From assembly GCA_963781935.1 (NCBI GenBank), contig CAWAHX010000006.1, positions 4,481 to 68,480 of the forward strand: 64,000 nucleotides of DNA, given 5' to 3'. A program made the translations under genes and the position numbers. Under the pieces are notes generated by a model. The model worked only from the letters and a program-made list of their open reading frames with translations. It was not told the DNA's origin and ran no database searches. The DNA is from an uncultured Solirubrobacteraceae bacterium. Its GTDB lineage: Bacteria; Actinomycetota; Thermoleophilia; Solirubrobacterales; Solirubrobacteraceae. Position 1 is the first letter of the stretch. Each line of letters opens with the position of its first letter. Below, piece by piece: positions 3,626 to 28,987 of this stretch.

Positions 3626-4772
3626 CGGCGGGGCGGGGCGCCGGCTCGGCGGCGGGCGTGCCTGCTGCGCTCCACACCCAGAGCAGGGCGACCCAGCTGC
3701 AGGTCGCCATCACGACGTGCACCCACACGAGCCCGGTCGGGAGCTTCAGGGAGTACTGGATGATCCCCAGAAGGCCCTGCAGCGCGAGCAGCACGCCGAC
3801 GGTGGCGATCGGGATCAGCAGGCGGCCGGAGGCGTTGCGGAAGTAGGCGATCGCGAATGCAGCGATCGTCATCAGGCCGAGGATCACGGCGACCGTGCTG
3901 TGATTGCCCACCGCCCAGTCGAGCGTGTCCGAGCCCTTGACGTAGAGCCGCTTGATCAGGTCGTGCGTGCCCTTGCCGCCGCCGTGAGGGCCCGCCGCCG
4001 AGGCGGCGGTGCCGGCAATGACGACGACCGCGCCGACCGGGAGCAGCGCCCGCGCCGCCCACATCGTCAGGCGATCTTCGGCGCCGGCCGCGATGGCCCC
4101 GTCCTCCCACCCCGGCTTGGAGCGCCAGTACAGGGCCCAGGCGGCCACGATGATGAGCAGCGACAGGCTGTAGTGCCCCATGACGAAGCCGGGGCGCAGC
4201 TCGTACAGCACCGTCAGGCCGCCGAGCACCGCCTGCGCGACGACGCCGAGCGGCAACAGGACCGCGAGGACACACAGATCGCGCCGCCGCGGCACGCGGA
4301 AGAAGCTGAAGAACGCGGCCGCGAACGCCGCCAGGCTGACGGGGAACGTGAAGAGCCGGTTGCCGAACTCGATGAATCCGTGCAGGCCCGACGGGTTGTA
4401 GAGGCCCGTCTGCGAGCACTTCGGCCATTTCGGGCACCCCAGGCCCGAGCCCGTCACGCGCACGGCGGCGCCCGTGAAGACGATCACGACGAGCAGGACG
4501 AGCGCCGCCGTGGCGATCTGGTGGTACCGCTCGGGGCTGGTCTGGAGGCGTTGCGCGCATCGCCGTGCATGATGGCGGATCGCGGTCGCGAAGGGCTCAG
4601 GCGGGGCAGGTTCGAACGCGCTGCTGCGCAGCGACGTACAGATGCCAGTCCACACCGGGGGCCTTGTCGCGCACGGTGCGGACGATGGCGCTGCCGGGGG
4701 CCGCAATCGGCGTGGGAGTGACGGTGAACCGCTCGGCGAACCGACGCAGCTGCACGCCGACCGGAGAGCCAC
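3591..4772 (-). CDS. ctaA: Heme A synthase (COX15/CtaA family)
   Basis: Polytopic membrane protein with VRVTGSGLGCPKWPKC and conserved His-containing helices (GHYSL, VGNHST, VWVHVV). The start is uncertain. ORF start 4772 overlaps the upstream gene by 176 nt. There is no in-frame start between 4597 and TM1. An ATG at 4570 lies in another frame, so a 5' frame break is possible. Confidence 0.8.
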   Translation of the reverse strand: MALRSACSCVGSPSGSPSLPRRLRPPAAPSSAPCATRPPVWTGICTSLRSSAFEPAPPEPFATAIRHHARRCAQRLQTSPERYHQIATAALVLLVVIVFTGAAVRVTGSGLGCPKWPKCSQTGLYNPSGLHGFIEFGNRLFTFPVSLAAFAAAFFSFFRVPRRRDLCVLAVLLPLGVVAQAVLGGLTVLYELRPGFVMGHYSLSLLIIVAAWALYWRSKPGWEDGAIAAGAEDRLTMWAARALLPVGAVVVIAGTAASAAGPHGGGKGTHDLIKRLYVKGSDTLDWAVGNHSTVAVILGLMTIAAFAIAYFRNASGRLLIPIATVGVLLALQGLLGIIQYSLKLPTGLVWVHVVMATCSWVALLWVWSAAGTPAAEPAPRPAATTRSPASSAA

Positions 4773-6336
4773 GGCCCGTCGTCACGGACACCGAGTCTCC
4801 GGGGTGGATACGCACCACGAAGGACGGCGCTCCGGAGCCCGACGGTGTGAACGTGATGCAACGCCCGGCTTGCGCGAGGGCACCGCCCGTCGGCTCCTCC
4901 ACCGTCAGGACGGCGCCAGCGGCTGCCGCGTTCTGGGGCCCGTTTGCCGGGGCGAGCGGCACGATGCCCTCTGCACGGGCGACAGCCGCGTCCGCCGCTT
5001 GCCGACGACTCTCCGGCGCCTTGCCGGCGAGCCAACCGAGGCCGCCTGAGGCGCTCCCGAAGCGGCGCGTGGCCGCCAGGTAGGACCCGATCCGAAGGAT
5101 CTCCGTCGCGCGCGGGTCGACGAGGAGATCCGCGCGCGACGCTGCGCCCCCGACCTCGATTCCGGCCAGCTCGCCTCGCAGCGGCTCCCAGATCCCGCGC
5201 AGGAATCGCGTTGAGTCCCGCAGATGGAAGAGGTTCCCGAACGTCAGACCGACTACCACGACCACTGCCGTGGCGGTCATCCACGGTGTCCACCGCTGAG
5301 GCGCGGGCAACATCTCGGCCGCAACCAGCATCAGCACAATCGCTCCGAACGAGATGTAGCGGGGCGCACCAGGCTCGTGGAACTGTGCCCTGGTCACGGC
5401 CGTCAGCGTCCAGAAGCCGAGCCCGGCGACAAGCAGTGCCGCCAGCCTCGGCGACGGAAGTGGCGCACGGGCGTCGCCACGACGCAGGATGGCGACTGCG
5501 CCGATCCCTCCGGCGAGGATCACAGGTCCGTAACCGGCGGCCAACCCGGTGATCCCGGCCGCGGCCGCCGACGCCGCGTCGACGACATACTGAACCGCGT
5601 ACTGAACGTTGCTCCCGATCGCGTCGCTCCCGTCGCTGTATCCAGCCCTCCAGAGCAGGTACAGCCCGAGCGGAACGGCGAAGATCCACCAACGCCTCCG
5701 GCGACCCGGTTCGAGGAGCACCTCAACCGCCACTCCGAGCAGGATCGGAATGCCCATTCCCGCCGTCGCCAGCGACGCAGTAATGAGAATGCAGGCCCAG
5801 ATGTCGCGGCGTTTGGATGGCTGGTCGAGCAGCACGAACGCTCCCAGCCCGAACGCGAGCGCGCCGACCTGGCTGAGCTGGAAGGGGAGCAGAATGTTCT
5901 CTGCGCTCGCTGACATGAACAGCAGCAGGAACGCAGGGATCAGCGCCGCCCAGCCACCGAGCCGGCGACGGACGAGCACGTAGACGAGCACCACGCAGGC
6001 AAGGTGGGTGATGAGCACGGAGAGCCGATACGGCCAGTAGTGCCCGAGGCCGACGGTCGACCAGAGCGTCTTGTAAACCAGCACGGGGATCAACGAGAGG
6101 TGACCGTTGTGTGGTCGCAGGTAGGTATCCAACCCGCCCCCTTGGCGCACCGACAGGAACGTCCACTCGTCCCCGTAGAAACCGAGTGGACGGCCGAGCC
6201 AGAGGATCCCGATACCGCCGACCACGACGGCCGCCACGAGGATCGCAGTCTGGATACTGATCCGCCCTGCGATCAGGCGCGTCGGGGCCGCCGCCCGGCC
6301 GGTTGTCTCTGGGGAAGCGGCCTCAGCGGACATCAC
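4597..6336 (-). CDS. Large polytopic membrane protein, GT-C-like (putative polyprenol-phosphate-sugar dependent glycosyltransferase) with C-terminal extracytoplasmic domain
   Basis: Intact 579-aa ORF with many hydrophobic spans. An acidic motif, FYGDEWTF, follows TM1 directly, as in the first loop of GT-C enzymes. There is a soluble beta-rich C-terminus. The likely start is ATG 6333, with TAGCCT 7 nt upstream. Confidence 0.55.
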   Translation of the reverse strand: MMSAEAASPETTGRAAAPTRLIAGRISIQTAILVAAVVVGGIGILWLGRPLGFYGDEWTFLSVRQGGGLDTYLRPHNGHLSLIPVLVYKTLWSTVGLGHYWPYRLSVLITHLACVVLVYVLVRRRLGGWAALIPAFLLLFMSASAENILLPFQLSQVGALAFGLGAFVLLDQPSKRRDIWACILITASLATAGMGIPILLGVAVEVLLEPGRRRRWWIFAVPLGLYLLWRAGYSDGSDAIGSNVQYAVQYVVDAASAAAAGITGLAAGYGPVILAGGIGAVAILRRGDARAPLPSPRLAALLVAGLGFWTLTAVTRAQFHEPGAPRYISFGAIVLMLVAAEMLPAPQRWTPWMTATAVVVVVGLTFGNLFHLRDSTRFLRGIWEPLRGELAGIEVGGAASRADLLVDPRATEILRIGSYLAATRRFGSASGGLGWLAGKAPESRRQAADAAVARAEGIVPLAPANGPQNAAAAGAVLTVEEPTGGALAQAGRCITFTPSGSGAPSFVVRIHPGDSVSVTTGRGSPVGVQLRRFAERFTVTPTPIAAPGSAIVRTVRDKAPGVDWHLYVAAQQRVRTCPA

Positions 6337-6404
6337 GCTCAGGCTACCTCAGCAACTCAATGCCGTCCTCGCGGGCGCGCAGGACCGCCGATAGGGTCCG
6401 GGAG

Positions 6405-7187
6405 ATGCCCCCCGCCGCGCTCTACGCCGAACCGATCACCGTCGACGACATATCGGAGTGCTTCTTCTACCACGTCATGGACGTACCCGGCGGCGGTGTC
6501 GTGGGCTACAACGAGGTCAAGGCGTCCTTCGATCTTCGGGGCCATGAGGCCGAGTATCTCGGCCACGTGGCGTTTGACGGGCGGCGAGTCCTGGAGATCG
6601 GCCCAGCCAGCGGGTTTCTGACTTTTGCGATGGAGTCGATGGGCGCCGAGGTGGTCGCGGTAGAGCTCGGCGAAGACAACGAGTGGGATGTCGTGCCACA
6701 CGCCGAGCTCGACCTCGCCGCCATCCAGAACGGACGCCAGGACATGTTGCGGCGGCTGCGCAACGGCTTCTGGTGGGCGCACGCCCGCACGGACAGCAGA
6801 GCGAAGGTGCACTACGGCGACGTCTACGCGCTCCCCGGCGAGCTCGGCCGCTTCGACGTGGCGGTCCTTGCGGCAGTCCTCCTTCATACCCGCGAGCCGC
6901 TGCGCATCATCGAGGGCTGCGCGGGGCTGAGCGACCGAATCGTGATCACGGAGATGTCATACCCGGAGCTGGGCAGCACGGCGGTGACCCGCTTTCACCC
7001 GCAGGCCGGGTCAACCAAGTGGGACACGTGGTGGGACTTCACACCCGAGTACCTCGTCCGGTTCCTCGAAGTCCTGGGCTTCCGCCGTTTCGCCGTCACG
7101 CACCACACGCAGCGTCTCGTCGTCCCTGGCGGGGAACACGAGATCCGGATGTTCACCGTGGTGGCTGATCACGGATCGGTCAGCTGA
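6405..7187 (+). CDS. Class I SAM-dependent methyltransferase
   Basis: Motif I is RVLEIGPASGFLTFAMESMGAEVVAVE, with a later DVAVLAAVLLH. The start is taken at ATG 6405 because it is preceded by TAGGGT at 7 nt. The ORF-track start 6303 would overlap the divergent gene. Confidence 0.6.
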   Translation: MPPAALYAEPITVDDISECFFYHVMDVPGGGVVGYNEVKASFDLRGHEAEYLGHVAFDGRRVLEIGPASGFLTFAMESMGAEVVAVELGEDNEWDVVPHAELDLAAIQNGRQDMLRRLRNGFWWAHARTDSRAKVHYGDVYALPGELGRFDVAVLAAVLLHTREPLRIIEGCAGLSDRIVITEMSYPELGSTAVTRFHPQAGSTKWDTWWDFTPEYLVRFLEVLGFRRFAVTHHTQRLVVPGGEHEIRMFTVVADHGSVS

Positions 7188-10100
7188 CGCGATTGATCTC
7201 GACCAACTCCGGGTTGCACCGGTAGTACTCGAAGAACGCCTCCACCGCGGCCGGGGGTGCCAGGTCGACCCCGCGGATGCGAAACGGGCGTCCCCCGCCG
7301 GCGACGACCTGAGGGCCGAATCGCAGATCGAGCGCCTGCACGTGGTTGGCGTGCAGTGGGTAGAACGTCGAGGAGAGGAACTCGTCGACGCCCGGCGCCC
7401 TCGGCGCCCTTCCAGTCGGCAGCCCCAGCAACGCCAGCGCCTCGTCGGCCATGTAGCCGAGCAGGACGTCGGTCGGGTGATTCATCGTGAAGAACAGCAG
7501 CTCTTCGCGGAAGCGCTCCTCGATGTAGGACGTGACCTGGACGTCGCAGCCCTCCCCTCGAAGGGCCAGCTCAGCGGTCGCAGCATTCGCCCACGCGACG
7601 GCATCCGACGGGCGCGCGGGGTCGGCCAGCCGCGCGCATGTCTCCTCGACGCCTGCGCCGTCGACGAAGGCCTGCAGGATCACGCGGTCGTGGTAGTCGA
7701 ACGGGCCGTCGACAACGGGGCGCCCCTCCGCGTCACGCAGGTAGAACATGTCCGGCACGTAGCCCGCCCAGAACGTGCTGGGCCAGCGAACGACGGTCGC
7801 CGATCCCGCGATTGCCGCCAGCTGCGCCGTGCCCAAGCCGATGCCGTCGCGATACCCGTCGTCGACCTTCTGCAGGAGCGCCACGGAGGCGCCTTCCACG
7901 GCGCGGTGGAGCTCGGGGATCTGCTCGTCGGGAATCTCGTGCACCGCCGGAAAGGACACGAGCTCGAACCGTTCGGCGAACGCCTCGTTCATCGAGAGAA
8001 GCGTCTCCAAGCCGATCGCCTGGCAGTTGCCGACGACGATGGCACGCTCTCGGACGCGGCGCCCGACGGGAGGAGTGTCGGGTGCCGACGAGCCCACCAG
8101 CCGCTCGAGCGCCGCTCGCTGCGCCTCAGGCGAGCACTCGCGCCGCACGATCTCCTGACCCTCTTCGGAGAGGCGCGCCCACAGATCGGCGTCTCGGTGC
8201 AGCTTCACGATGCGCGACGCGAATCCCGCCGCGTCGTCGCCGATCAGCAGGCCTTCACCGTCCGTGGCGCCGAGGCCTTCGGCTCCGAGTGTCGTCGTGA
8301 CGACCGGGAGGCCGGCGGCGAGCGCCTGCGTGACCTTGCCCTTGACGCCCGCGCCGTAGCGCACCGGGGCCGCGGAGACGAGCGCACCGCGCAGCAGAGG
8401 GTCGAGATCCGCCACCCACCCCGCGACCACGACGTTCGGCGACTCCAGCTCGGTGACCGCGACCGGCGGATTGGAGCCGGCGATCGTCAGGGCGACGTCC
8501 GGCAGCTCCTGCCACACCAGGGGCATGACCTCCTGCGCCAGATAGCGCACCGCGTCGATGTTCGGCTCGTGCTCGAACCCGCCGACGAACAGCACGCCAT
8601 GACGTGACCCGCGGCCGGGGACCGTCGGCCACACCTCGTTGGCGAGCGGAACGACCGCCGCCGCGGCACCGGTCATCGACTCGACGAGCTCCTGCTCCTC
8701 ACGGCTGACGACGAGTGTCACGTCCGTCGCTCTGGCCAGGCCCAGCTCCACGTGACGGAACGCGTCGGACACCCGGCTTGCGACATCGCCCGCGTGCTCG
8801 CTGCGGCGCCGCTCGCGGAGGAAGTGCAGATCGACCGTGTCGTAGGCGAGGATCGCATCAGGCGCGTGACGGCGGACCAGATGCAGGTAGCGCGGGGCCA
8901 CCTCCGGGCGACTCAGGATCACGAGCCGCAGGCGGGGCGAGAGATCCTCGAGGAGCCGGCGGATGTCGGTCGCGCCGACGAGGACCTCGATGCCCATCCC
9001 CTGGAGCTCGCCCATGTACGGCTCGGCAGGTTCGAGGTTGTCGGGGAGGAACGTGACGCGGTAGCCCATCTCCACGAAGTTCTTCAGGAGATGGAACATC
9101 CGCAGTGAACCCGCATCGTGATCGGCGCGCGGAATCCGGTAGTCGACGACGAGGACGCTCGAGCCGCGGCGCCGGTCGGCCGCGAACGCGGCCAGCTCCT
9201 GCGACGGGCCGGCGACCTGCTCGGCCAGCTCGGCCCGCCACTTCTCCGCGAACTTGGGCTGGTTGAGCACCTGGTGGCGCTTGCCGCCGGCGGACTCGTC
9301 GGTGCCCATTGATCCGCCCTCGAGATGGATGACGAGCGACCGCGGCTCGTACATCACCTCGAAGCCGCGGGCGCGCGCTGCGAAGCAGAGGTCGACGTCC
9401 TCCCAGTAGCCCGGGGAGAAGCGCTCGTCGAATCCACCGATCTCTCGCCAGAGATCGGCGCGGATCAGCAGCGCCGCCGCCGAGCCGTAGTCCACCGGGC
9501 GGGCGAAGTTGTAGACCGGCGCTCCCATGTCGCCCCCGCGACCGTAGTTCCACGCCGTGCCGTCCTGCCAGACGATCGAGCCCGCCTCCTGCAGCGTTCC
9601 GTCGGCGTACACGAGCTTCGCGACGGCGACCCCGACCGTCGGAGCGGACTCGACCCGATCGATCAGTGCCTGCAGCCAGCCGAGCTGGGGCTGGGTGTCG
9701 TTGTTGAGCAGGACGATGTACCGCCCGCGGGCCTCCGCGGCCCCCCGGTTGACGCTGTGCAGGAAGTTCAGGTTCGCCTTGTTGACGATCACGCGGATGC
9801 CTTCGACGCGCGCGAGCAGGGCCTTCGTCTCGGCATCGGCGGCGTCATCCACCACGATCACCTCGTAGGCCACGTCGCCTGACGCGTGCAGGATGCTGCT
9901 CAGGCACTTCTCGGTGATCGCGGCGTCCGAGTGGACGGGCACGACGATCGAGACGTCGGGCCGGTCGAACAGCGGCAGCGTCAGCAGCGGCTCGAGGGGT
10001 TGCGGCGCCGCAGGCGCGACCGGCTCCGGGGAACGGGCGGCGCGCAGCCTGGCACCCGCGCGCCCGAGGGATCGCAGCCCGGCACTGAGCGCCCGGGACG

Positions 10101-11187
10101 GTGCCGAGCGGTCGCCGCCCATGAGCCCGTAGACCTTCATGCGGATCGTCATGAAGATCCGCCACATGACGGATTCCTCGACCCGGGCGAGCGCGCGCCG
10201 AGTCTCCGCCATCTCGGCCTCGCGACGACTCAGCTCAGCAGCCGTCTCGTCGATCAGGCGCTCGTTGCGCCGCCGCGTCTCGTCAGCCAGCCGTGCCATC
10301 CGGGTGGCCTGGGCGACCGCATCTTCACGACGGGACCGAGCCTCCTCAAGCTCAGCCGCGATGACCCGCCGCGCCTCACTGCGTTCGTCGTCGTCGTCGC
10401 GCTGCTGCTCGCGAAGGAGCCCGAGCCCGACGTCCGACAGCGTCGACTCGGACGGCACGTCGGGCAGCGCTTCACGCGCCGCGATCATCAGGACGTACAA
10501 CACCGGCGGCGCCCCAGCGACCCGCCAACCGTCTCCGTCGCGCTCGATCCGGAACGAGCGCGCGTCGCCACGCTCGCCCTCAAGCGCTTCGATCCGAGAG
10601 CCCTCGATCGTGTGCTGCGAGAAGATCCGCCGGTGCGTGAAGCGCGCTCCGACGAGGGCTTCGAATTCCGGCCGCGAGAGCTCGCGCGCGTGGAATGGAT
10701 TGGGAGGGACCCCACGCTCGGCGTAGGCGTCGCGGTCCGGCGTCGAGATGATCAGGAGGCCGCCGGGCGCGAGCACACGATCGAGCTCGGCGAGGACCCG
10801 CTCCTGGTCGTCGATGTGCTCGATCACCTCGAGGGCGACGACGGCGTCGATCGAATCGTCGGCGACGGACGAGAGGTCCAGCGCCGAGGCCACGCGAAAC
10901 TCCAGATTGCCGGCCGCATAGTTCGCGCGCGCGTGGTCGATGGCATCGGACGCGATGTCGATCCCCACCACCGAGGCGGCCTCCTCCGCCAGCAGCGCCG
11001 CGCCGAAGCCCTCGCCGCTGCCGACGTCCAGGACGCGACGGCCCGCCACCAGCGCCTGCGCCCAGAGATAGCGGTGGTAATGCTCGTAGACGACGGCGAT
11101 ATCCGGCGCCCAGGGCACGCAGCGCTCGCCCGTCCACTCGATGAGGCGGGGCGCTCCCGCGGGACCTTCCGGCATCAGTCGTTTCAT
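7180..11187 (-). CDS. Five-module glycan assembly protein: SAM methyltransferase, coiled coil, GT2, GT4, WcbI-like C-terminal domain
   Basis: One uninterrupted ORF. It reads IEWTGERCVPW...VLDVGSGEGFGAALLA...LEVIEHI (methyltransferase). Next comes a charged heptad-rich stretch, EARRVIAAELEEARSRREDAVAQATRMARLADETRRRNERLIDETAAELSRREAEMAETRRAL. Then DVSIVVPVHSD...YEVIVVDDAADAE...VLLNNDT...YWEDVDLC (GT2). Then VLFVGGFEHEPNIDAV...GAGVKGKVTQALAAGLPVVTT (GT4). It ends with IVVGNCQAIG...FFTMNHPT (WcbI-like, from memory). The start is taken at ATG 11187. Confidence 0.8.
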   Translation of the reverse strand: MKRLMPEGPAGAPRLIEWTGERCVPWAPDIAVVYEHYHRYLWAQALVAGRRVLDVGSGEGFGAALLAEEAASVVGIDIASDAIDHARANYAAGNLEFRVASALDLSSVADDSIDAVVALEVIEHIDDQERVLAELDRVLAPGGLLIISTPDRDAYAERGVPPNPFHARELSRPEFEALVGARFTHRRIFSQHTIEGSRIEALEGERGDARSFRIERDGDGWRVAGAPPVLYVLMIAAREALPDVPSESTLSDVGLGLLREQQRDDDDERSEARRVIAAELEEARSRREDAVAQATRMARLADETRRRNERLIDETAAELSRREAEMAETRRALARVEESVMWRIFMTIRMKVYGLMGGDRSAPSRALSAGLRSLGRAGARLRAARSPEPVAPAAPQPLEPLLTLPLFDRPDVSIVVPVHSDAAITEKCLSSILHASGDVAYEVIVVDDAADAETKALLARVEGIRVIVNKANLNFLHSVNRGAAEARGRYIVLLNNDTQPQLGWLQALIDRVESAPTVGVAVAKLVYADGTLQEAGSIVWQDGTAWNYGRGGDMGAPVYNFARPVDYGSAAALLIRADLWREIGGFDERFSPGYWEDVDLCFAARARGFEVMYEPRSLVIHLEGGSMGTDESAGGKRHQVLNQPKFAEKWRAELAEQVAGPSQELAAFAADRRRGSSVLVVDYRIPRADHDAGSLRMFHLLKNFVEMGYRVTFLPDNLEPAEPYMGELQGMGIEVLVGATDIRRLLEDLSPRLRLVILSRPEVAPRYLHLVRRHAPDAILAYDTVDLHFLRERRRSEHAGDVASRVSDAFRHVELGLARATDVTLVVSREEQELVESMTGAAAAVVPLANEVWPTVPGRGSRHGVLFVGGFEHEPNIDAVRYLAQEVMPLVWQELPDVALTIAGSNPPVAVTELESPNVVVAGWVADLDPLLRGALVSAAPVRYGAGVKGKVTQALAAGLPVVTTTLGAEGLGATDGEGLLIGDDAAGFASRIVKLHRDADLWARLSEEGQEIVRRECSPEAQRAALERLVGSSAPDTPPVGRRVRERAIVVGNCQAIGLETLLSMNEAFAERFELVSFPAVHEIPDEQIPELHRAVEGASVALLQKVDDGYRDGIGLGTAQLAAIAGSATVVRWPSTFWAGYVPDMFYLRDAEGRPVVDGPFDYHDRVILQAFVDGAGVEETCARLADPARPSDAVAWANAATAELALRGEGCDVQVTSYIEERFREELLFFTMNHPTDVLLGYMADEALALLGLPTGRAPRAPGVDEFLSSTFYPLHANHVQALDLRFGPQVVAGGGRPFRIRGVDLAPPAAVEAFFEYYRCNPELVEINRVS

Positions 11188-11233
11188 AGCAGGATCGGCC
11201 CGCGTCGGAGGACCGCATCGTCGGAGCACCCAG

Positions 11234-11239
11234 TACGTT
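11234..11239 (+). promoter_or_regulatory. Candidate -10 box TACGTT, 9 nt upstream of the wzt ATG (leaderless-type)
   Basis: TANNNT hexamer in a 61-bp divergent intergenic region. There is no purine-rich SD at proper spacing. Confidence 0.4.
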
Positions 11240-11248
11240 GGAGTACTC

Positions 11249-12502
11249 ATGAGCGCCGTGCAAGAGGCCTACAGCGCACGCCAGGACGACCTCGCCGGCG
11301 CCGGCGTGGCGGTCAGCGTCGACAACCTCACCAAGACCTTCCGCCTGCCGCGTCAGCAGGTCAACACGCTCAAGGAGCGTGTCATCCATCCTTTGCGCTC
11401 GCGTGAGTACGACGAGTTCGCGGCGCTGAAGGACATCACGGTGGACATCGCCCGGGGAGAGTTCTTCGGGATCGTCGGTCGCAACGGCTCGGGAAAGAGC
11501 ACGCTGCTCAAGTGCCTCGCCGGCATCTACCAGCCCAACCACGGCTCGGTGCAGGTGAACGGCGGCCTCTCCCCGTTCATCGAGCTCGGCGTCGGGTTCA
11601 ACCCTGACCTCGCGGCCCTGGACAACGTCATCATCAACGCCGTGATGATGGGCATGTCCCGATCGGACGCTCGGGAGCGATTCGACGAGGTGATCGCCTT
11701 CGCCGAGCTCGAGGAGTTCGTCGACCTCAAGCTCAAGAACTACTCCTCGGGGATGGCGGTCCGCCTGGGGTTCGCCACCGCGATCCAGGCCGAGGCGGAG
11801 GTGCTGCTCGTCGACGAGGTCCTCGCCGTGGGAGACGCCGCCTTCCAGCAGAAGTGCTTCGAGGAGTTCAAGCGTCTGAAGGACGAGGGACGGACGATCG
11901 TCTTCGTGACGCATGACATGGGCGCCGTGCAGAGGTTCTGCGACCGTGCACTCCTGATCGAGCGCGGCGAGATGCGGGCCCTCGGCGATCCGCGCGACAT
12001 CGCCCGCGAGTACAACGAGCTCAACTTCGGGCGGCTCGTGCACGACAGCGTCGAGGAGAGCGGCCGCTACGGCGACCATGCCGCCGCCGAGATCGTCCAG
12101 TCGTGGGTCGAGAACGACAAGCGCGAGCGCGTGAACGACATCGCCCAAGGTCAGCGGCTGACGCTGGCCCTCGCGATGAACTTCCACGAGCAGATCGACG
12201 AGCCGATCTTCGGCTTCGCGCTGCGCAACGCCATGGGCCACACCGTCTTCGCCACGACGAGCGAATGGCAGGACGACTCCGTCGGGACGTTCTACGGCGG
12301 GCAGGGCGTCATCGTGCGCGTCAGCTTCGACGTGTGGCTCGCGCCCGGGCTCTACAACCTCACGCCGTCCGTGGCCCGGCCGGGCTCGGGCGCCAACGCG
12401 CTCGATCTGCGCGAGGACCTCGTCCAGTTCTACATACACGCGGTTCGCCAGACCGGCGGCGTCGTCGACCTCCCCCACACGTACGAGGTCGAGATCCTGT
12501 GA
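11249..12502 (+). CDS. wzt: O-antigen/teichoic-acid type ABC exporter ATPase with C-terminal glycan-binding domain (Wzt-like)
   Basis: Walker A is GRNGSGKST, the ABC signature is YSSGMAVRLGF, and Walker B is VLLVDEVLAVGD. An extra ~150-aa C-terminal module (IVQSWVENDKRERVNDIAQGQRLTLALAMNF...GLYNLTPSV) has the alternating pattern of Wzt_C beta-sandwiches. The stop overlaps the next start (GTGA). Confidence 0.85.
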   Translation: MSAVQEAYSARQDDLAGAGVAVSVDNLTKTFRLPRQQVNTLKERVIHPLRSREYDEFAALKDITVDIARGEFFGIVGRNGSGKSTLLKCLAGIYQPNHGSVQVNGGLSPFIELGVGFNPDLAALDNVIINAVMMGMSRSDARERFDEVIAFAELEEFVDLKLKNYSSGMAVRLGFATAIQAEAEVLLVDEVLAVGDAAFQQKCFEEFKRLKDEGRTIVFVTHDMGAVQRFCDRALLIERGEMRALGDPRDIAREYNELNFGRLVHDSVEESGRYGDHAAAEIVQSWVENDKRERVNDIAQGQRLTLALAMNFHEQIDEPIFGFALRNAMGHTVFATTSEWQDDSVGTFYGGQGVIVRVSFDVWLAPGLYNLTPSVARPGSGANALDLREDLVQFYIHAVRQTGGVVDLPHTYEVEIL

Positions 12503-13376
12503 CCGACGTCCTCGAGAAGCCGAAGCCCGGGAAGAAGCCTCGGAGATCGCCGGCCGTTTCCCTCCCCGACATGGGCCAGCTGGGCCGCAGCGCCGAACTG
12601 CGCCGGATCGGCACGCTCACGTGGACCCTGGCCATCACCGACTGGCGGCTGCGGTTCTACGGCTCGGTACTCGGGATCCTGTGGACGCTCGTCAAGCCGT
12701 TCGCGTTCTTCGGCGTGATCTACGTCGTCTTCACCCAGATCGCCAGCCTCGACACGAACGTCGAGTACTACGCCCCGTACATCCTCTTCGCGATGGTGCT
12801 GTTCAACTTCTTCGGCGAAGTCACCGGCATGTCGGTGCAGGCCTTCCCCTTCCGCGAGAACCTGCTGCGCAAGATGCATTTCCCGCCGCTCGTGATCCCG
12901 CTGTCGATCGCCGTCACCGCGCTGCTGAATCTCGGCATGACGCTCGTGGCGGTCGTGATCTTCGCGCTGATCAGCGGCGTGACGCCGACCTGGACATGGC
13001 TCGAGTTTCCGTTCCTGATCATCCTGCTGACGACGCTCGCGCTGGGGATCGGCATGTCGCTGAGCACGCTGTACGTGCGTTTTCGTGACATCCAGCCGAT
13101 ATGGGACGTCGTCGGGCAGATCCTCTTCTACATGTCAGCCGTGCTGTACGTCGCCACCTCGGTGCCCGGGAAGTACTTCCAGGCATTCCTGTGCAACCCG
13201 CTGGCGGCGATCAACACGGAGATGCGCCACGTGCTGCTGGACCATTCGGCACCGTCGATCTTCGAGGCCATGCCGAACGGCAAGTGGCTCATACCCTCGG
13301 GGTGATCATCTTCTTCTTCGTCAGCGGGGCATGGATCTTCGCCCGCGAGAGCCCTCGCGTCGCCGAGAACCTCTGA
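12499..13376 (+). CDS. wzm: ABC-2 type polysaccharide exporter permease (Wzm-like); single frame break near 13285
   Basis: Multiple TM spans follow GTG 12499 (LRFYGSVLGILWTLVKPFAFFGVIYVVF...). The last TM and tail, LGVIIFFFVSGAWIFARESPRVAENL, lie in the frame of ORF 13101..13376. One extra C in the CCC run near 13285 would restore a continuous frame. Confidence 0.75.
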
Positions 13377-13399: not shown

Positions 13400-15319
13400 T
13401 CAGCTCTTCGGGACCAGGAGCTGCCAGGGCCCGACCTGCGCGGCAGGTGTGAACTCGTTGAACAGATATCGCAGCGCAGGCCCGTTCGGTACCGGGCGCC
13501 CCTGCAGCCAGAACTGAGCCTGCTGATCGTTACGGAAAGCGCACGGTCGGGGCGAAGCCCTGAGCTGCTTGACGACTCTGCGTTGGGTGGCGTCATCGAG
13601 CTGGACGTACCACGAACCGGGAAGGGTGGGGATCGGATCGTCGATGTGCGCCCAGAGATAGAGGCTGTCCAAGCCGGGGTAGCTGATCAGCGTGGTGCAT
13701 CCGTTGTCCCGTAGCGCCTTCACCAAGCCCGTGTATGTGTCGCGCTCTGCCACCGAGAGCCTGAGCCGCGATGCCTCGGGGAATGGGAGGGGTTTGCGGT
13801 CTCCGTAGCTGATGCCGGAGGCGATCACCGGACGGAGGACCAACGACCACAGAGCCAGCACGACAAGAGCCCCCAGCAACACCCTGGCGACGTAGGACGA
13901 CCGGTCAGCGGCCACGCCGCGCTCGAGCAACCCTGCCCTCAGCGCGTGCCAGCCGTCGGCGATGCACAGCGCGCCGACGGGGCCGAACATGATCGTGGCG
14001 GCCGCCACCTGCGTCCCGGCGACGGGATACACCTGCAGGACCTCCGCAACCGCGAGCGCCGGGAACAGCACGCGGATCAGGCGCCCTCGCGGCGTGAGCG
14101 TGATGCCACTGGGCGGCACCGCCGCCACCCATGCAAGCGCCATCGGGATCATAAGCGGCGGGCCGCTGGCCGAGGCCCATACGGGGCCGAACTTCGCCGC
14201 CGCGAGCCAGATCGACACGCCGGCGCCGATCCGCAGCACCCCTGCCACCATGGCTGACCCGGGGCCGAGACGAACCGTGAGCAGGGCGCCGCTGAGCCCG
14301 GCCACCGCGCACAGGACCGACGACGACGGGAGGGCGAACGGGATGCTGAAGACATCCGCCTGTTCGAGAGCACGACCGATGATGCCGTTGTAAGCGTCGC
14401 CCAACGACGCGCCGGTGACCAAGAGTACGGCGAGCGTCGCGATGACCAAGGCGACGAAGCCGACGATGGTCCCGAGCACCCATCGGCTGAGAGCGCCGTC
14501 GTCCTCTCCGCTGGGTGGACGGAGGGATCTCGCGGCAACCACGACCGCAGCGAACCCGAGCGTCGCCCAGACGATGAGGTCACGGATGTAATCGTGTCGC
14601 GCGTGGCTGTAGGTGAGGAGCAACGGGAGCGCGATGAAGAACCCGAGCACGAGCCGACGCAGGCCGGCCCGCCGGTGGAGCCCGCTACAGGTGCAGACCG
14701 CAGCGGCCGCGACGGCCGCGACGGCGAACAGCCCGAGGTTGACCTTCGTCAGGACCAGAGCCCCGAGGAGCGCACCGGTCAGGATGCCGAGCAGCAGCCC
14801 GCGGTGCTCCGGAACAGTTACCAGTACCAGCGCGAGCGCGGACAGCAGCAGCACGCACAGACCAACCGGATGCATCGGCTCGTTGACCAGCGCGTAGAGC
14901 TCGTTGAACGCCACGGCGGCGGCGACGAGGCCGAGGCTCAGGCGCCCCGTCAGGCGCATCGCGGTCACGCCGAGCATCACGCTGGCCGTGACCCAGATGA
15001 CCGCCACGATCGAGCGGCTGGCATCGTTGGTGATCGACCTGCCGGTCAGCGCGAAGAGCCCGCCGAACACCTCGTAGTAGAACGGCCCGTACTGTGAGAA
15101 GACGTCCCGGTAGAGCGTGTGGCCGTCGACAAAACTCTTGAGTGTGACCAGGAGCGTGCCCTCGTCATCCCAAGGTGCGAAGAACGTGAAGACCGCCCAA
15201 TACGCGCCGACCGCCGCAACGACGGCGAAGGCGCTGAACGCACTGAAGGTGACGGCACGTGGGTGCCCCCGCAGTGCGGAGCCGACCTTCGACAAACGAT
15301 CTGTCGCCGCGGCGCCCAT
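13400..15319 (-). CDS. Large polytopic membrane protein, GT-C-like, with C-terminal soluble domain
   Basis: The real start is ATG 15319 (MGAAATDRLSK...), overlapping the upstream stop (TAATG). FAPWDDEGTL follows TM1 directly, and more than 10 hydrophobic spans follow. The N-terminal 236 aa of track ORF 13400..16027 is a shadow of the epimerase gene. Confidence 0.6.
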   Translation of the reverse strand: MGAAATDRLSKVGSALRGHPRAVTFSAFSAFAVVAAVGAYWAVFTFFAPWDDEGTLLVTLKSFVDGHTLYRDVFSQYGPFYYEVFGGLFALTGRSITNDASRSIVAVIWVTASVMLGVTAMRLTGRLSLGLVAAAVAFNELYALVNEPMHPVGLCVLLLSALALVLVTVPEHRGLLLGILTGALLGALVLTKVNLGLFAVAAVAAAAVCTCSGLHRRAGLRRLVLGFFIALPLLLTYSHARHDYIRDLIVWATLGFAAVVVAARSLRPPSGEDDGALSRWVLGTIVGFVALVIATLAVLLVTGASLGDAYNGIIGRALEQADVFSIPFALPSSSVLCAVAGLSGALLTVRLGPGSAMVAGVLRIGAGVSIWLAAAKFGPVWASASGPPLMIPMALAWVAAVPPSGITLTPRGRLIRVLFPALAVAEVLQVYPVAGTQVAAATIMFGPVGALCIADGWHALRAGLLERGVAADRSSYVARVLLGALVVLALWSLVLRPVIASGISYGDRKPLPFPEASRLRLSVAERDTYTGLVKALRDNGCTTLISYPGLDSLYLWAHIDDPIPTLPGSWYVQLDDATQRRVVKQLRASPRPCAFRNDQQAQFWLQGRPVPNGPALRYLFNEFTPAAQVGPWQLLVPKS

Positions 15320-16278
15320 TACTCGTTCGACTCCGCGTATCGCGCGCCCGCGGACGGGCTTCCGCGCAGCCACTCTGCCAGCCTGCGCAGGCCCTCGGGC
15401 AACAGCGTCGATGCACTCCACCCCAACTCGCGTCCGGCCCGCGTCGGATCGGCGACCCACGTCGTCGTGTCCCAGCCGCGCGCGTCCATCGTCCCCCAAG
15501 CCGGTGTCGCGACGACACCGAAGACATCCTGCACGGTACCCACCAGGTCCTCGAGGGACGTCTGCGTCCCCGTACCGATGTTGAACACCCCCCCAGGCTC
15601 GACGTCGTCGGCCGTCGCCGCGCGAACGAACGCATCGCAGACATCGCCCACCCAGACATAGTCGCGCGCGATCGTCCTGTCGACCAGGGGAGGCCAGCGC
15701 CCCTCGAGCGCGCGCGCCACCAGCCTCGGCATCAGGCGACCGGGCTCCTCCCAGGGTCCGTACACCGAGTACAGGCGAAGCGTCACGGCGCGCTGGGCGT
15801 GTTCGGCGGCGGCAAGCCGGCAAAGATGCGTTGCGGCGGCCTTGGCCACCGCATAGTGGGAGTTCGGCTCGACGCGCTCGTCCTCCCTCGGGGCGTGGTC
15901 CACGTACCCGTACTCGGACGACGAGCCCGCGTTGACGACCACCGCGCCGATGTCGCGCGCGGCGACCAGGAGCGCCTCGGTGGCCGCGACATTGATTGCG
16001 AGGATCTGTCTGAAGTCCGTCTGCCACGAGTAGGCGCCATGGGCGGCGAGGTGAAACACCCAGTCAGGATGCTCATCGACCAGGATTCGGCGCACCTCTC
16101 CGGCATCCTCGACGTCGACCGCGGCGAGGCGCACCTCGCGTGGGCGGCTCCCGTCCAGCCGCCACGGCTCCCTGCCGGGCCGGTGGGTGGCGACGACATC
16201 GTGGTCCAGTGCTGCCAGGTGCCGAACCAGGTTCGCCCCGATGAACCCGTCCCCGCCGGTCACCAGTGCGCGCGCCAT
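15319..16278 (-). CDS. NAD-dependent sugar epimerase/dehydratase (SDR)
   Basis: Rossmann motif in MARALVTGGDGFIGANLV, then SSSEYG and YAVAKAAA (catalytic S...YxxxK). GGAG lies 10 nt before ATG 16278. Confidence 0.8.
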   Translation of the reverse strand: MARALVTGGDGFIGANLVRHLAALDHDVVATHRPGREPWRLDGSRPREVRLAAVDVEDAGEVRRILVDEHPDWVFHLAAHGAYSWQTDFRQILAINVAATEALLVAARDIGAVVVNAGSSSEYGYVDHAPREDERVEPNSHYAVAKAAATHLCRLAAAEHAQRAVTLRLYSVYGPWEEPGRLMPRLVARALEGRWPPLVDRTIARDYVWVGDVCDAFVRAATADDVEPGGVFNIGTGTQTSLEDLVGTVQDVFGVVATPAWGTMDARGWDTTTWVADPTRAGRELGWSASTLLPEGLRRLAEWLRGSPSAGARYAESNE

Positions 16279-16324: not shown

Positions 16325-17267
16325 TCACCGCGGCGACGAGAAGGCCCCGAGCCGGCCGGACTCGAGGAAGGTCTCATAGCCGAAGACCTCGAGGTACTGC
16401 CACGCACGGGTACCGATCTCCCGCTGCTCCTCGTCCGAGAGCTCCGCCGCCGTCGCAACGTTCGCCTGCGGCGTGGCAGCCCGGATGGTGCCCCAGGGGT
16501 AGACCTCGTCCAGCACCTTGGCGTTCCAGCTCGGGCCGGCGAGGCTGTCAGCCGCTCGCAGGCCGAGTTCGGCGAGCAGCGCCCCAAGGGTTCCGGCCGG
16601 ATCGGCCATGACGTCCTCGATGCGGACGATGTGAACACGCCCGGGATGGCGTTCGCGCTCGAGAAGCGCATAGTGCTGATTGATGTTCCAGCGCAGGATG
16701 TATCCCTCGAGGCTCAGCGGGACGGGCCGCTTCTTCGTGTCGGCGTACGCCGACCAGGGATTGCGAACGACGTGCAGGACGTGCGCCTCCGGAAGGTCCG
16801 CGACGATCTGCGCGGCGTCGACGTGATGATCGGGCTGTAGCCGACGTATACCTGCTCCGTCGCCCCGTGACGCTCGCGTCCTTCCATGCTTCGAACGTCG
16901 CGCGGAAGAACGCGGCGACGTTGTCTGCTCGTGACCGGCCGCTCTGCTCCGATGATGCGCGCGATAGATCTCGCAGCGCTCGTCGTCGTCCATGTCGAAC
17001 GGCTCGTGACGGAACTTGCAGACGTTGGGCGTTCTCGATCGGACCTTGCCCTCCTCGTCGATGATCGCCTCGATAGTCCTGCTCAGGCGTCGCATCCAGC
17101 AGCGAACACCGGCCATCGGTACTTCGACCGGGAACATCGCACTGAAGCCGTCGGTGACGTGCCGCGTGCCGATCTGCGACTCGAACGGGTAGACGTAGCA
17201 GCTGCGGGTGGCCGTCGAGGAAGCGGTGCGTGGTGTTCCCGCCGTTCTCGTACATCGCGCCGATCAT
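16325..17267 (-). pseudogene. Sulfotransferase-family protein, at least 3 frame breaks (~17195, ~16945, ~16850)
   Basis: Colinear pieces alternate between two frames: MIGAMYENGGNTTHRFLDGHPQL, then FPVEVPMAGVRCWMRRLSRTIEAIIDEEGKV...YRAHHRS, then ADNVAAFFRATFEAWKDAS, then AQIVADLPEAHVLHVVRNPWSAYADTKKR...HPGRVHIVRIEDVMADP. The assignment rests on general resemblance to bacterial sulfotransferases, recalled from memory. Confidence 0.45.
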
Positions 17268-25833: not shown

Positions 25834-26097
25834 ATGACGGACGACCCGCGCGACGCCGAGATCGCCCGCCTGAACGCCCGTGTCGAGCAGCTTCACGGAG
25901 AGCTGCTCGAACAGCAGCGCCGGACGAACGCCGTCGTGGCCGACGCCCAGGAGCAGCTCTACTGGCTCGAGCGCTGGCACATCGACCTGAACGACCTGAT
26001 GGCCCGGCGCGGAGCGAACACGTTCCGCGAGATCGTCAGGTTGGCCCGCGGCGTGTTTCGCCGGATTCGCAGCTGGAAGCGACGGCTGACCGGCTGA
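25834..26097 (+). CDS. Small (87 aa) coiled-coil protein, translationally coupled to the following glycosyltransferase
   Basis: MTDDPRDAEIARLNARVEQLHGELLEQQRRTNAVVADAQEQLYWLERWHIDLNDLM. TACGCT lies 8 nt before ATG 25834. The stop overlaps the next ATG (ATGA-type junction at 26095-26099). Confidence 0.5.
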   Translation: MTDDPRDAEIARLNARVEQLHGELLEQQRRTNAVVADAQEQLYWLERWHIDLNDLMARRGANTFREIVRLARGVFRRIRSWKRRLTG

Positions 26098-28226
26098 TGA
26101 CTCGCAGCGTCTCCGTCGTCGTCCCGGTCAAGAACGGCGAGCGCTACCTGCAGGAGCTCCTCACGGCGGTCAGCGGCCAGGCCGCCGACGCCGAGAGCCT
26201 CCAGATCCTCGTCATCGACTCCGGGTCGACCGACTCCAGCGTGACGATCGCACGCGCCGCCGGCGCCGACGTCGTGGAGATCGACGCGGAGACGTTCTCG
26301 CACGGCAGCACGCGCAACCTGGGGGCCGAGCAGACCACCGGGGAGATCATCTGCTTTCTGACGCAGGACGCGACGCCCGTTCCGGGGTGGCTGCAAGCCG
26401 TGCAGGACAGCTTCGATCTCGATGATCGCGTCGGCGCGGTCTACGGCCCGCATCTCGTGCGCCCCGACACGTCGCCGATGATCGCGCGCGAGCTCACGGA
26501 GTTCTTCGCCGGCCACGCGCGCAACGGTGGCGCGACCGTGCAGCGCGCCGGCGACGAGCCGTTCCTGTCCAATGTCAACGCGGCGTACCTGCGCAGGTGC
26601 TGGGAGGAGATCCGCTTCGACGACGTCCCGTACGCGGAGGATCAGGCCTTCGGCAGGGCGATGCTCGCGCGCGGATGGGCGAAGGTCTTCAACCCTCAGG
26701 CGGCGGTCCTGCACGCGCACGACTATCCACCACTGGAGTTCATGCGGCGCTACTTCGACGAGTACCGCGGGCTGCGCGAGACGACCGGGCACGTCGAGGC
26801 GTTCGGCCTGCGGTCCGGCGCCGGGCACGTTCGCTCCCTCGTCGCCCAGGACCGCCAGTGGATGCGTGCTCAGGGGTTCGGCGATCGCGAGGTCGCCCGG
26901 TGGACGGCCCGGTCGGCGATCCACCACGCCGGACGGCGCGTGTTCTCGGCCGCGGGCTCGCGTGCGGAGCGCCTGCCCTCGCCGGTTCAGCGCCGGCTCT
27001 CGCTCGAGGGCCGCGGAGCCGCCACCGGAGCCACCACGACCGCGGCAGGCGGCCCGCCGACCACCGAGCAGCGCCCGGCGATGATCGACCGCCCGGTCTA
27101 CGCCGACATCGTCGACTACCTGCGCAACGGGTCCGCACCGCTGCTCGATCCCGTGCCGGGGATGGCGGAGAGCGAGGCCCTCCATCTCGCCTTCGTGATT
27201 CCGGAGTTCCGTCGCGGGAGCGGCGGGCACAACTCGATCTTCCAGCAGATCCTCGAGCTCGAGCGGATGGGCCACACGTGCTCGATCTGGGTGCACGACT
27301 CCGTCGGCCTGCACAAGCACGAATGGGACGCCGTCCTGCGCCACGACATCCGTGAATGGTTCGCGCCCGTTCAGGCCCCGGTGCGCAAGGGCTTCGAGCA
27401 CTGGATCGGCGCGGACGTCGTACTCGCGACCGGCTGGCAGACCGTGTACCCGATGCTCCAGCTGCCCGGGTGCCGTGCGCGTGCGTACCTCGTCCACGAT
27501 CACGAGAACGAGTTCTACGCGACGTCGGTCGAATCGCGATGGGCGCAGGACACCTACCGGTTCGGTCTCTACTGCATCGCCGGGAGCCCGTGGCTGAGCG
27601 ACCTGATGACCGGCCTCTACGGCGCACAGGCCAACGTGTTCCCATTCGGGGTCGATCACGAGGTGTACTTCCCACGCCCGATCGAGCGTGAACCGGAGAC
27701 GGTCGTGTTCTACGGCCGCGGCGTCACCCAGCGCCGGGCGGTCGCGCTGGGGATGCTGGCGCTGGACGAGCTGAAGCGCCGGCGCCCTGGCCTGCGCGTC
27801 GTGATCTTCGGCGACCCCGACCCGCCGCACACGAGCTTCCCTTACGAGCACGCGGGTGTGGCGACCCCCGAGGAGCTGGCGTTCCTGTACTCGCAGGGCA
27901 CCGTCGGGCTCGTTCTGTCGCTGACGAACTACTCGCTGATCCCGCAGGAGATGCTCGCCTGCGGAATGCCCTGCGTCGACCTCGCCGGCTACAGCAGCGA
28001 ATCCGTCTTCGGATCCGATGGCCCGGTCGAGCTTGCGGAGTTCGATCCTGGTGACCTCGCCGCGGCAATCGAGCGGCTGCTCGACGATCCTGAGCGCTGG
28101 GAGCGGGACTCGGCGCGCGGCATCGAGTTCGTCCGTGACCGGACGTGGAGAGCCGCGGCGGAGGCGGTCGACGCCGGCGTGCGCAAGGCGCTCTCGCTGC
28201 GCGAGCAGGATCCGGCCGCGTCGTGA
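26097..28226 (+). CDS. Bifunctional glycosyltransferase (N-terminal GT2, C-terminal GT4/WsaF-like)
   Basis: Intact 709-aa ORF: SVSVVVPVKNGERYLQELL...LVIDSGSTDSS...CFLTQDATP (GT2), then LHLAFVIPEFRRGSGGHNSIFQQILELERMGH...VFYGRGVTQRRAV...LIPQEMLACGMPCVDL (GT-B). Confidence 0.8.
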   Translation: MTRSVSVVVPVKNGERYLQELLTAVSGQAADAESLQILVIDSGSTDSSVTIARAAGADVVEIDAETFSHGSTRNLGAEQTTGEIICFLTQDATPVPGWLQAVQDSFDLDDRVGAVYGPHLVRPDTSPMIARELTEFFAGHARNGGATVQRAGDEPFLSNVNAAYLRRCWEEIRFDDVPYAEDQAFGRAMLARGWAKVFNPQAAVLHAHDYPPLEFMRRYFDEYRGLRETTGHVEAFGLRSGAGHVRSLVAQDRQWMRAQGFGDREVARWTARSAIHHAGRRVFSAAGSRAERLPSPVQRRLSLEGRGAATGATTTAAGGPPTTEQRPAMIDRPVYADIVDYLRNGSAPLLDPVPGMAESEALHLAFVIPEFRRGSGGHNSIFQQILELERMGHTCSIWVHDSVGLHKHEWDAVLRHDIREWFAPVQAPVRKGFEHWIGADVVLATGWQTVYPMLQLPGCRARAYLVHDHENEFYATSVESRWAQDTYRFGLYCIAGSPWLSDLMTGLYGAQANVFPFGVDHEVYFPRPIEREPETVVFYGRGVTQRRAVALGMLALDELKRRRPGLRVVIFGDPDPPHTSFPYEHAGVATPEELAFLYSQGTVGLVLSLTNYSLIPQEMLACGMPCVDLAGYSSESVFGSDGPVELAEFDPGDLAAAIERLLDDPERWERDSARGIEFVRDRTWRAAAEAVDAGVRKALSLREQDPAAS

Positions 28227-28987
28227 GGCCTCGTCTGGGCCTGGGGCTCGGCCGGCCGGTGATCAGGCTCCGTCAGGCATTTCGCGCCCGCATCGTCGGC
28301 TCGTCGCCGATCCCGGACACGGTTCGGCGCGACGTGGCGCTGCGCTATCTGCGCGGCTCGGGAATCGAGATCGGGGCGCTGAACCGCCCGATGCGCGTCC
28401 CCTCCTCGGTCGGCGTCCGCTACGTCGACCACGAGCGGCGCGACAGCCTGATAGCGCGCTATCCGGAGTTCGCGGGCCAGCCGATCGTGGAGCCCGACAT
28501 CCTCGACGACGGCGCCACCCTTGTGACCCTGCCGGACGGCTCCGAGGACTTCGTGATCGCGAACCACGTCATCGAGCACCTCGAGAACCCTGTCGGCGCG
28601 TTGCGCGCATGGCTGCGCGTCCTGCGACCCGGTGGCGTGATCTTCATGTGCGTCCCCGAGAAGCGCCGGACGTTCGACGCGGAGCGCCCCTCGACGCAGG
28701 TCGAGCACCTCCTGCGCGACGACGCTGACGGCCCGCAGTGGTCGCGCCGCAGCCACTACGAGGAGTGGGCGCGACTTGCCGAGCATGTCCCTGAGGCGGA
28801 CGTGCCCGAGCGCGTCGCGCAGCTCGAGGGCCAGAGCCGTGACGTGCACTTCCACGTATGGGCGTTCGAGGACATCGCCGCCACTCTGGTGGCGCTCCGG
28901 GACGGCCCGAACGGGTTGCCGTTCGACATCGAGCTGCTGCAGGCCAACTGGAACGAGACGATCTGCGTGCTGCGCCGCGTGGCCTGA
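28223..28987 (+). CDS. Class I SAM-dependent methyltransferase
   Basis: IEIGALNRPM...DFVIANHVIEHLENPVGALRAWLRVLRPGGVIFMCVP. GTG 28223 overlaps the upstream stop (GTGA). Confidence 0.7.
   Translation: MRPRLGLGLGRPVIRLRQAFRARIVGSSPIPDTVRRDVALRYLRGSGIEIGALNRPMRVPSSVGVRYVDHERRDSLIARYPEFAGQPIVEPDILDDGATLVTLPDGSEDFVIANHVIEHLENPVGALRAWLRVLRPGGVIFMCVPEKRRTFDAERPSTQVEHLLRDDADGPQWSRRSHYEEWARLAEHVPEADVPERVAQLEGQSRDVHFHVWAFEDIAATLVALRDGPNGLPFDIELLQANWNETICVLRRVA

Follow-up and report, generated by a model that had tools for sequence, protein, structure and literature searches.

A candidate terminator/spacer/polymerase protein with a fused WcbI module in a Wzm/Wzt glycan island of an uncultured actinobacterium

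We analysed a 64,000-nt stretch of contig CAWAHX010000006.1 (called the window in the following) from an uncultured, Solirubrobacterales-like actinobacterium from soil. The study focuses on a single gene encoded on its minus strand at 7180-11187 (the big gene). The encoded 1335-aa protein combines a class I S-adenosylmethionine (SAM) methyltransferase, a long charged helix, two glycosyltransferase (GT) modules of types GT2 and GT4, and a C-terminal module of the WcbI family. By analogy with characterised systems, we consider it probable that this is a cytoplasmic peripheral-membrane enzyme of a Wzm/Wzt surface-glycan pathway that unites terminator, spacer and polymerase and carries a fused WcbI module for acylation. 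The new part is the WcbI module fused onto the polymerase end; the core design is already known.

An initial annotation of the window had proposed these five modules in this order, which is borne out by Pfam as well as by an AlphaFold2 model (residues 1-1040, 43 sequences, predicted local distance difference test (pLDDT) 85). Pfam assigns Methyltransf_11/31/25/23 to residues 45-195 (E 5e-23), Glycos_transf_2 to 413-546 (E 6e-20; the GT2 match is extended to 410-624 by Glyco_tranf_2_3), Glyco_trans_1_4 to 864-999 (E 1.5e-23) and WcbI (PF18588) to 1049-1257 (E 2.8e-45, 154.9 bits at a cut-off of 29.2; 158.6 bits in the genome search). The methyltransferase domain shows the SAM motif VLDVGSGEGFG with an intact GxGxG, while residues 196-250 form its small beta subdomain in the model. 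Its match to the methyltransferase of WbdD is weak (E 3e-4, residues 17-184), and neither Pfam nor the model places a kinase domain after it, as is found in the WbdD (E. coli O9a) family. In the GT2 module, modelled as a GT-A domain spanning 412-655, D448, D451, D497, E596, D597 and D599 are invariant in the homologue alignment. For the GT4 module, Foldseek reports MshA, BshA, PimB' and methylmannose polysaccharide mannosyltransferase with target-normalised TM-scores of 0.6-0.73. The Foldseek search of the 1-1040 model against the PDB gave generic GT-A/GT-B neighbours only, i.e., no hint on the donor sugar and no WbbB/WbdD-like match of the whole protein. Transmembrane segments were found nowhere in the 1335 aa.

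First, we compared the WcbI end of the protein with related loci. In eight loci from Solirubrobacterales, WcbI is encoded by a separate open reading frame (ORF) near the big gene, namely directly downstream (L017, L018, L020, L021, L048), about 1 kb downstream (L053, L056) or upstream (L028). All eight ORFs are 59-64% identical to the WcbI domain of the window. In the split loci, the big gene stops and, after only a few codons and in some cases in the same frame, WcbI begins with M-[ED]-R-x-V-V-V-G-N-C-Q. A three-frame comparison of the junction with the five loci that have WcbI directly downstream shows that the stop is absent from the window, which reads RERAIVVGNCQ where the standalone genes read MERAVVVGNCQ, i.e., the initiator Met is replaced by Arg. 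Judged from this comparison, the WcbI module is a neighbouring gene that became fused in frame and lies outside the core design.

Next, we studied whether such a fusion occurred more than once. A search with the WcbI region in a set of 5.8 billion proteins, considering candidates of full protein length, returned two fused clusters only, i.e., the window's own and P0003. In a tree of the core region, L023 and L038 are the neighbours of the window protein, whereas P0003 falls within the clade of split genes. A single origin of the two fused proteins was rejected on this tree (approximately unbiased (AU) test, p = 1e-9), whose four erroneously chosen long-branch ORFs (L004, L013, L014, L015) leave the relevant clades untouched. 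The WcbI tree also favours separate origins, with weaker support. Given the different tree placement and the AU result, we read the two proteins as products of separate fusion events that joined the same two genes. Within the host genome, a 3.3-Mb metagenome-assembled genome (MAG) of 65% completeness, the window's WcbI domain is the only one. WcbI was found in none of the other three genomes searched from the genus; at class level, 4 of 401 genomes have it. The standalone WcbI proteins of three genomes from the same family (L009-L011) were ruled out as a source, being about 30% identical and located in unrelated contexts.

The GNCQ and MNHPT motifs had already been described as WcbI-like, and the PF18588 match and the motif alignment confirm this assignment: Cys1055 (nt 8023-8025) and His1237 (nt 7477-7479) align with Cys14 and His201 of Burkholderia pseudomallei WcbI (PDB 4bqn, E 4.5e-10). 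In the crystal structure of the latter, Cys14 and His201 contact the carbonyl of acetyl-coenzyme A (acetyl-CoA), and a disulfide links Cys14 and CoA (PDB 4bqn/4bqo; PMC4104973). We built a WcbI hidden Markov model from the window domain and 108 standalone homologues, with which the separate WcbI ORFs of the eight loci were detected; in these 109 aligned rows, the Cys is kept in 99% and the His in 100%. The most conserved positions of the family, i.e., G-N-C-Q, N-H-P, a Tyr-His pair, a Gln and an Arg, are all kept in the window domain. Its own AlphaFold2 model, based on a 10-sequence alignment, reached a pLDDT of only 55 and was too poor for a fold search. The B. pseudomallei protein binds CoA tightly and is needed for the production of a capsule that is acetylated, not sulfated (PMC4104973). 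Both proteins share the family, the Cys/His equivalents and an ABC-transporter-dependent glycan pathway. They differ in that B. pseudomallei WcbI is a standalone protein of 312 aa without demonstrated activity, whereas the window module is covalently joined to a GT4 module. The authors of the structure suggested that the acceptor is presented by an unknown partner (PMC4104973). Our search for literature on later WcbI biochemistry or on the wcbH-wcbI gene order yielded nothing usable. Given its location on the polymerase side of the spacer and the retained Cys/His pair, the WcbI module most likely O-acylates the nascent chain from acetyl-CoA during polymerisation, with the GT4 module as its partner.

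We also evaluated the spacer between methyltransferase and GT modules. Here, the initial annotation had described a charged heptad region of about 80 residues. The model indeed shows an unbroken 80-residue helix, but the heptads are borderline in the window protein (p = 0.14 for windowed a/d occupancy, p = 0.03 for 3.5-residue power) and not significant when testing the whole segment (p = 0.12). Among 43 homologues, heptad periodicity is significant in 35. The spacer is bounded by the invariant D252 and S339, between which the family shows no sequence conservation, and it measures 53-146 aa in the 43 homologues and 53-170 aa in a set of 143. Its helical character is kept despite variable length and unconserved sequence. 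In the larger set, lengths cluster at 85/92/99 and 103/110/117, i.e., in classes that are 3.5 or 7 residues apart. The mod-7 length classes 1, 4 and 5 hold 113/143 proteins, where kin are not independent and unique lengths give p = 0.06. These length classes hint at a constraint on heptad phase, and the modelled helix is most likely an oligomeric coiled coil.

The spacer is followed by two amphipathic helices at 340-355 and 362-379 of the model (hydrophobic moment up to 0.70) with a Trp/Phe/Arg-rich family consensus SVTWxxFQRxRGRLYG...RAL..LR..GR. They take the same position as the membrane-proximal helix described for WbdD (PMC11231755). In the model, the spacer separates the methyltransferase on its far side from the GTs, which follow the amphipathic helices on its near side; such a geometry of distal terminator and proximal polymerase fits a ruler model.

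This core has known counterparts. The order of all five modules had been put forward as undescribed; for modules 1-4 this does not hold because two such proteins are already characterised, one with the same layout (ORF6 of Klebsiella pneumoniae O7) and one with a similar layout (WsaE). ORF6, whose arrangement of methyltransferase, coiled coil and two GTs was dissected biochemically (PMC11231755; Kelly et al. 2024), resembles the window protein in its N-terminal methyltransferase-containing terminator, central coiled coil (putative in the window protein) and two C-terminal GT modules, a likeness in described layout. Its cluster likewise contains wzm/wzt, and an additional standalone GT is needed in O7. 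In contrast to the window protein, ORF6 has a kinase and a domain resembling a carbohydrate-binding module (CBM), makes a methyl-phosphate cap, uses GT2 for both GT modules (GT2 and GT4 in the window) and has no WcbI. WsaE acts on the S-layer glycan of Geobacillus stearothermophilus NRS 2004/3a, where its methyltransferase makes a 2-O-methyl cap and its two rhamnosyltransferase domains work with WsaF (PMC2943079). By description, it shares with the window protein a Gram-positive ABC-transporter pathway, an N-terminal methyltransferase and two GT domains. WsaE pairs with a separate WsaF, and a 709-aa transferase of the window (see below) matches the Pfam families WsaF_N and WsaF_C. WsaE differs as a rhamnosyltransferase with an established product, no known ruler role and no WcbI. 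In WbdD-WbdA (E. coli O9a / K. pneumoniae O3) and WbbB (K. pneumoniae O12), too, terminator and polymerase lie on opposite sides of a spacer: the terminator is distal on a coiled-coil ruler, the polymerase is proximal together with a membrane-proximal amphipathic helix, and the cap is read by a CBM on Wzt. WbdD differs from the window protein by its kinase and its lack of GTs, its polymerase being a separate protein, and the terminator of WbbB is a Kdo transferase.

Following these analogues, the protein may work as follows. At the membrane, a lipid-linked glycan would be elongated by the GT2 and GT4 modules, probably jointly with the 709-aa transferase and its 90-aa partner. The 80-residue helix would hold the N-terminal SAM methyltransferase about 120 Å away, and the latter would methylate the non-reducing end of chains that have reached sufficient length. 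The methyl cap would then be recognised by Wzt through its Wzt_C domain and the chain exported. The WcbI module, once a separate, translationally adjacent gene, would acylate the nascent chain presented by the GT4 module. The logic of terminator, spacer and polymerase envisaged in the initial annotation is supported by the far-end methyltransferase, the near-end GTs and the CBM on Wzt; the terminating activity itself is an inference, as are the ruler function, the acylation and the nature of the sugar, while domain content, folds, synteny, fusion and residue conservation are direct results of this analysis.

Several observations weigh against this reading. B. pseudomallei WcbI showed no acetyltransferase activity in three assays and was inactive with GDP-mannose and mannotetraose (PMC4104973). 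By core sequence, the closest relatives are L023, L038 and L004, none of which has a WcbI within 10 kb. The spacer of the window protein is unusually charged (51%; composition R 24%, E 20%, A 20%), with the borderline heptads reported above. Furthermore, the island contains at least four further methyltransferase-like genes (1315-2268, 6303-7187, 28145-28987, 39155-39934, 42741-43499).

The first of these points leads to the question whether the WcbI module is an O-acyltransferase at all. It might instead be a regulatory or scaffolding domain that binds CoA or a 3'-phospho-ADP nucleotide, or have a role in sulfation, which we consider unlikely. Besides the missing activity, fusions would favour this alternative: of 20 long proteins with a WcbI domain, 4 also carry a sulfotransferase (P0151, P0154, P0162, P0194) and 5 have tetratricopeptide (TPR) repeats (P0153, P0178, P0181, P0195, P0198) fused to it. 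CoA and 3'-phosphoadenosine-5'-phosphosulfate (PAPS) also share their 3'-phospho-ADP moiety, and a sulfotransferase-like gene (16325-17137, minus strand) lies in the same island. However, conservation in the family peaks at the Cys and His, which face the thiol/acyl end of the bound CoA and not its nucleotide end, the loci with split WcbI lack a counterpart of the window's sulfotransferase, and the B. pseudomallei capsule is acetylated. O-acylation is the preferred role of the module.

With regard to the helix, high charge and borderline periodicity mean that the spacer could be a single stable helix. We see a small chance that it is such an alpha-helix, or a plain dimerisation tether, and not a coiled coil that measures length. 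Only 15% of its residues are LIVMFYW and the a/d occupancy is weak in the window protein, in line with this alternative. The significant heptads of most homologues speak for the coiled coil, as do the 3.5- or 7-residue steps in spacer length, which are limited by the relatedness of the proteins and the p-value of only 0.06 for unique lengths. A length-measuring coiled coil is the preferred interpretation.

Given the other methyltransferase genes of the island, the cap could be made elsewhere. That is, the methyltransferase module might decorate internal residues, while chain length is set otherwise, e.g., by the ratio of the polymerase to another capping enzyme or by the 90-aa protein. An extra methyltransferase next to wzt in L001 is in accordance with this scenario, which we nevertheless rate as quite unlikely: the methyltransferase is always found at the far end of the variable spacer across hundreds of homologues, a CBM-bearing Wzt adjoins the big gene in most related loci with enough flank, and both characterised analogues (O7 ORF6, WsaE) cap the chain end. 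Finally, it is very improbable that there are two genes in reality and that the five-module ORF only reflects an assembly or sequencing error in the incomplete MAG, since, although the split arrangement is commoner and a single wrong base could merge the genes in those relatives where stop and WcbI start are in the same frame and 2-3 codons apart, two changes would be required (loss of the stop and Met to Arg), the junction is unlike all split relatives over about 15 codons, and the independently fused P0003 was seen on three contigs from different samples.

Concerning the distribution of the core, a database search returned 1295 matches, including one cluster that matches the protein by 100%; the four-module core is shared by more than 1000 homologues. 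The best 120 of these 1295 are nearly all 990-1150 aa long, combine methyltransferase, GT2 and GT4, and are 46-58% identical; where a source is named among the best 120, it is given as Solirubrobacteraceae or Conexibacter. Scanning GTDB species genomes, we confirmed 594 relatives. Full-length ones occur in Solirubrobacterales, Conexibacteraceae, Acidimicrobiales, Nostocales, one Chthoniobacterales MAG and Pseudonocardiaceae (Amycolatopsis, Saccharopolyspora spinosa, Lentzea, Saccharomonospora, Actinopolyspora). Others, from Gammaproteobacteria, Desulfobacterales and further groups, align only from the coil or GT2 onward; their N-terminus is formed by some other methyltransferase, by an additional GT domain or by an unknown domain, or is missing altogether. 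This suggests that terminator modules are interchangeable on the GT2-GT4 cassette. Individual examples are L061 with a methyltransferase of another kind, L062 (1535 aa) with an additional GT1-type domain, L065 with about 550 unannotated aa, and cassettes without N-terminal extension in Nostoc and Scytonema (L079, L072).

Table 1. Features of the big gene, its companion pair and the export genes (window coordinates; residues refer to the 1335-aa protein).
Feature	Coordinates	Strand	Basis
Big gene (1335 aa + stop; methyltransferase, helix, GT2, GT4, WcbI)	7180..11187	-	intact ORF, Pfam domains
Class I SAM methyltransferase, residues 33-250, candidate chain-capping module	10438..11091	-	Pfam Methyltransf_11 E 5e-23, pLDDT >90
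Single charged helix, 80 residues (258-337), ~120 Å, putative coiled-coil spacer/ruler	10177..10416	-	AlphaFold2 model
Two conserved basic amphipathic helices, residues 340-379, candidate membrane-interface/docking element	10051..10170	-	alignment columns, model
Pro-rich disordered linker, residues 380-409	9961..10050	-	pLDDT <50 at 375-396
GT2 (GT-A fold) module, residues 410-655	9223..9960	-	Pfam Glycos_transf_2, Glyco_tranf_2_3, Foldseek GT-A matches
GT4 (GT-B fold) module, residues 677-1032, two complete lobes	8092..9159	-	Pfam Glyco_trans_1_4, model, Foldseek
Fusion junction, residues 1033-1045, SSAPDTPPVGRRV	8053..8091	-	stop + WcbI start lie here in split relatives
WcbI-family module, residues 1046-1335	7183..8052	-	Pfam PF18588 E 2.8e-45, PDB 4bqn alignment
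wzt, ABC ATPase with C-terminal Wzt_C carbohydrate-binding domain	11249..12502	+	Pfam ABC_tran + Wzt_C E 4e-21
wzm, ABC-2 permease	12499..13305	+	Pfam ABC2_membrane; GTG start overlaps wzt stop
90-aa protein, coil then basic helix	25825..26097	+	orthologues 42-52% identical beside big gene in eight loci
709-aa GT2 + WsaF-like GT4 transferase	26097..28226	+	Pfam Glycos_transf_2, WsaF_N, WsaF_C; orthologues 58-61% identical

Features and coordinates are collected in Table 1. The initial annotation's single intact ORF of 1335 aa was confirmed by our frame analysis. The longest frame on the minus strand is 7180-11250, and 1335 aa result from the ATG at 11187. Since a start at 11250 would overlap the start of wzt at 11249 (plus strand) and homologue alignments begin only at residue about 4-10 of the 1335-aa protein, 11187 is the likelier start. 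At its other end, the big gene is convergent with a 294-aa ORF with a weak methyltransferase match (6303-7187, plus strand), with an overlap of 8 nt over the big gene's stop codon.

The export genes are arranged as the initial annotation had described, i.e., wzt/wzm are divergently paired with the big gene, with 61 nt between the latter and wzt, and Wzt carries a Wzt_C domain. The best PDB match of Wzt is the 404-aa ABC transporter chain 7k2t/8dku (residues 26-377, E 2.5e-66), which reaches beyond the nucleotide-binding domain.

A companion gene pair, encoding the 90-aa protein and the 709-aa transferase, adjoins the big gene in L001, L004, L036, L038, L048, L050, L053 and L056, while in L028 an orthologue of the transferase is found about 10 kb from it. 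In L001 and L004, the two closest database relatives looked up, the pair consists of an 86-94-aa protein and a GT2-WsaF-like transferase of about 700 aa. The gene of the 90-aa protein is translationally coupled to that of the transferase. From its domains and synteny, the 709-aa transferase is a probable additional polymerase component, which the 90-aa protein may recruit to the coiled coil. By analogy with WsaE/WsaF and ORF6/ORF7, the polymerase is probably a multi-protein complex and, therefore, the repeat unit need not be a disaccharide. This conserved pairing casts doubt on two further proposals for the big gene, i.e., that it encodes an all-in-one polymerase and that its product has a disaccharide repeat.

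The window as a whole (G+C about 70%) is a large glycan island with many further transferases, short-chain dehydrogenase/reductase (SDR) enzymes, two Gmd genes, a split transketolase, the sulfotransferase-like gene and a Wzx-type flippase. NCBIfam found no equivalog above cut-off among its sugar-nucleotide genes, with one sub-threshold Gmd, and the big gene could not be linked to any sugar-nucleotide pathway. Three ORFs without Pfam match show a coding-like codon bias, all on the minus strand: 4597-6336 (579 aa), 13400-15322 (640 aa) and 28992-31412 (806 aa). Relatives of the latter, 32-40% identical, are found in L014, L017, L025, L028 and L038.

The core of the big gene adds no new concept. 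It means that the terminator/ruler/polymerase design known from enterobacterial O antigens and the Geobacillus glycan is very widespread, reaching Gram-positive Actinomycetota (Solirubrobacterales, Acidimicrobiales, Pseudonocardiaceae) and Cyanobacteria. For the WcbI family, the conserved gene pair together with two independent in-frame fusions provides a 'Rosetta stone' link, i.e., a concrete and testable hypothesis on the partner of WcbI. Tentatively, and with somewhat less than even confidence, we suggest that WcbI proteins are polymerase-docked, Cys/His-dependent O-acyltransferases that are active only when a GT-B module presents the nascent lipid-linked chain. If true, the fusions and the gene pair would reveal the partner postulated in the WcbI structure paper and would explain why isolated WcbI is inactive. 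The fused protein would then hold donor site, acceptor-presenting enzyme and product in one polypeptide.

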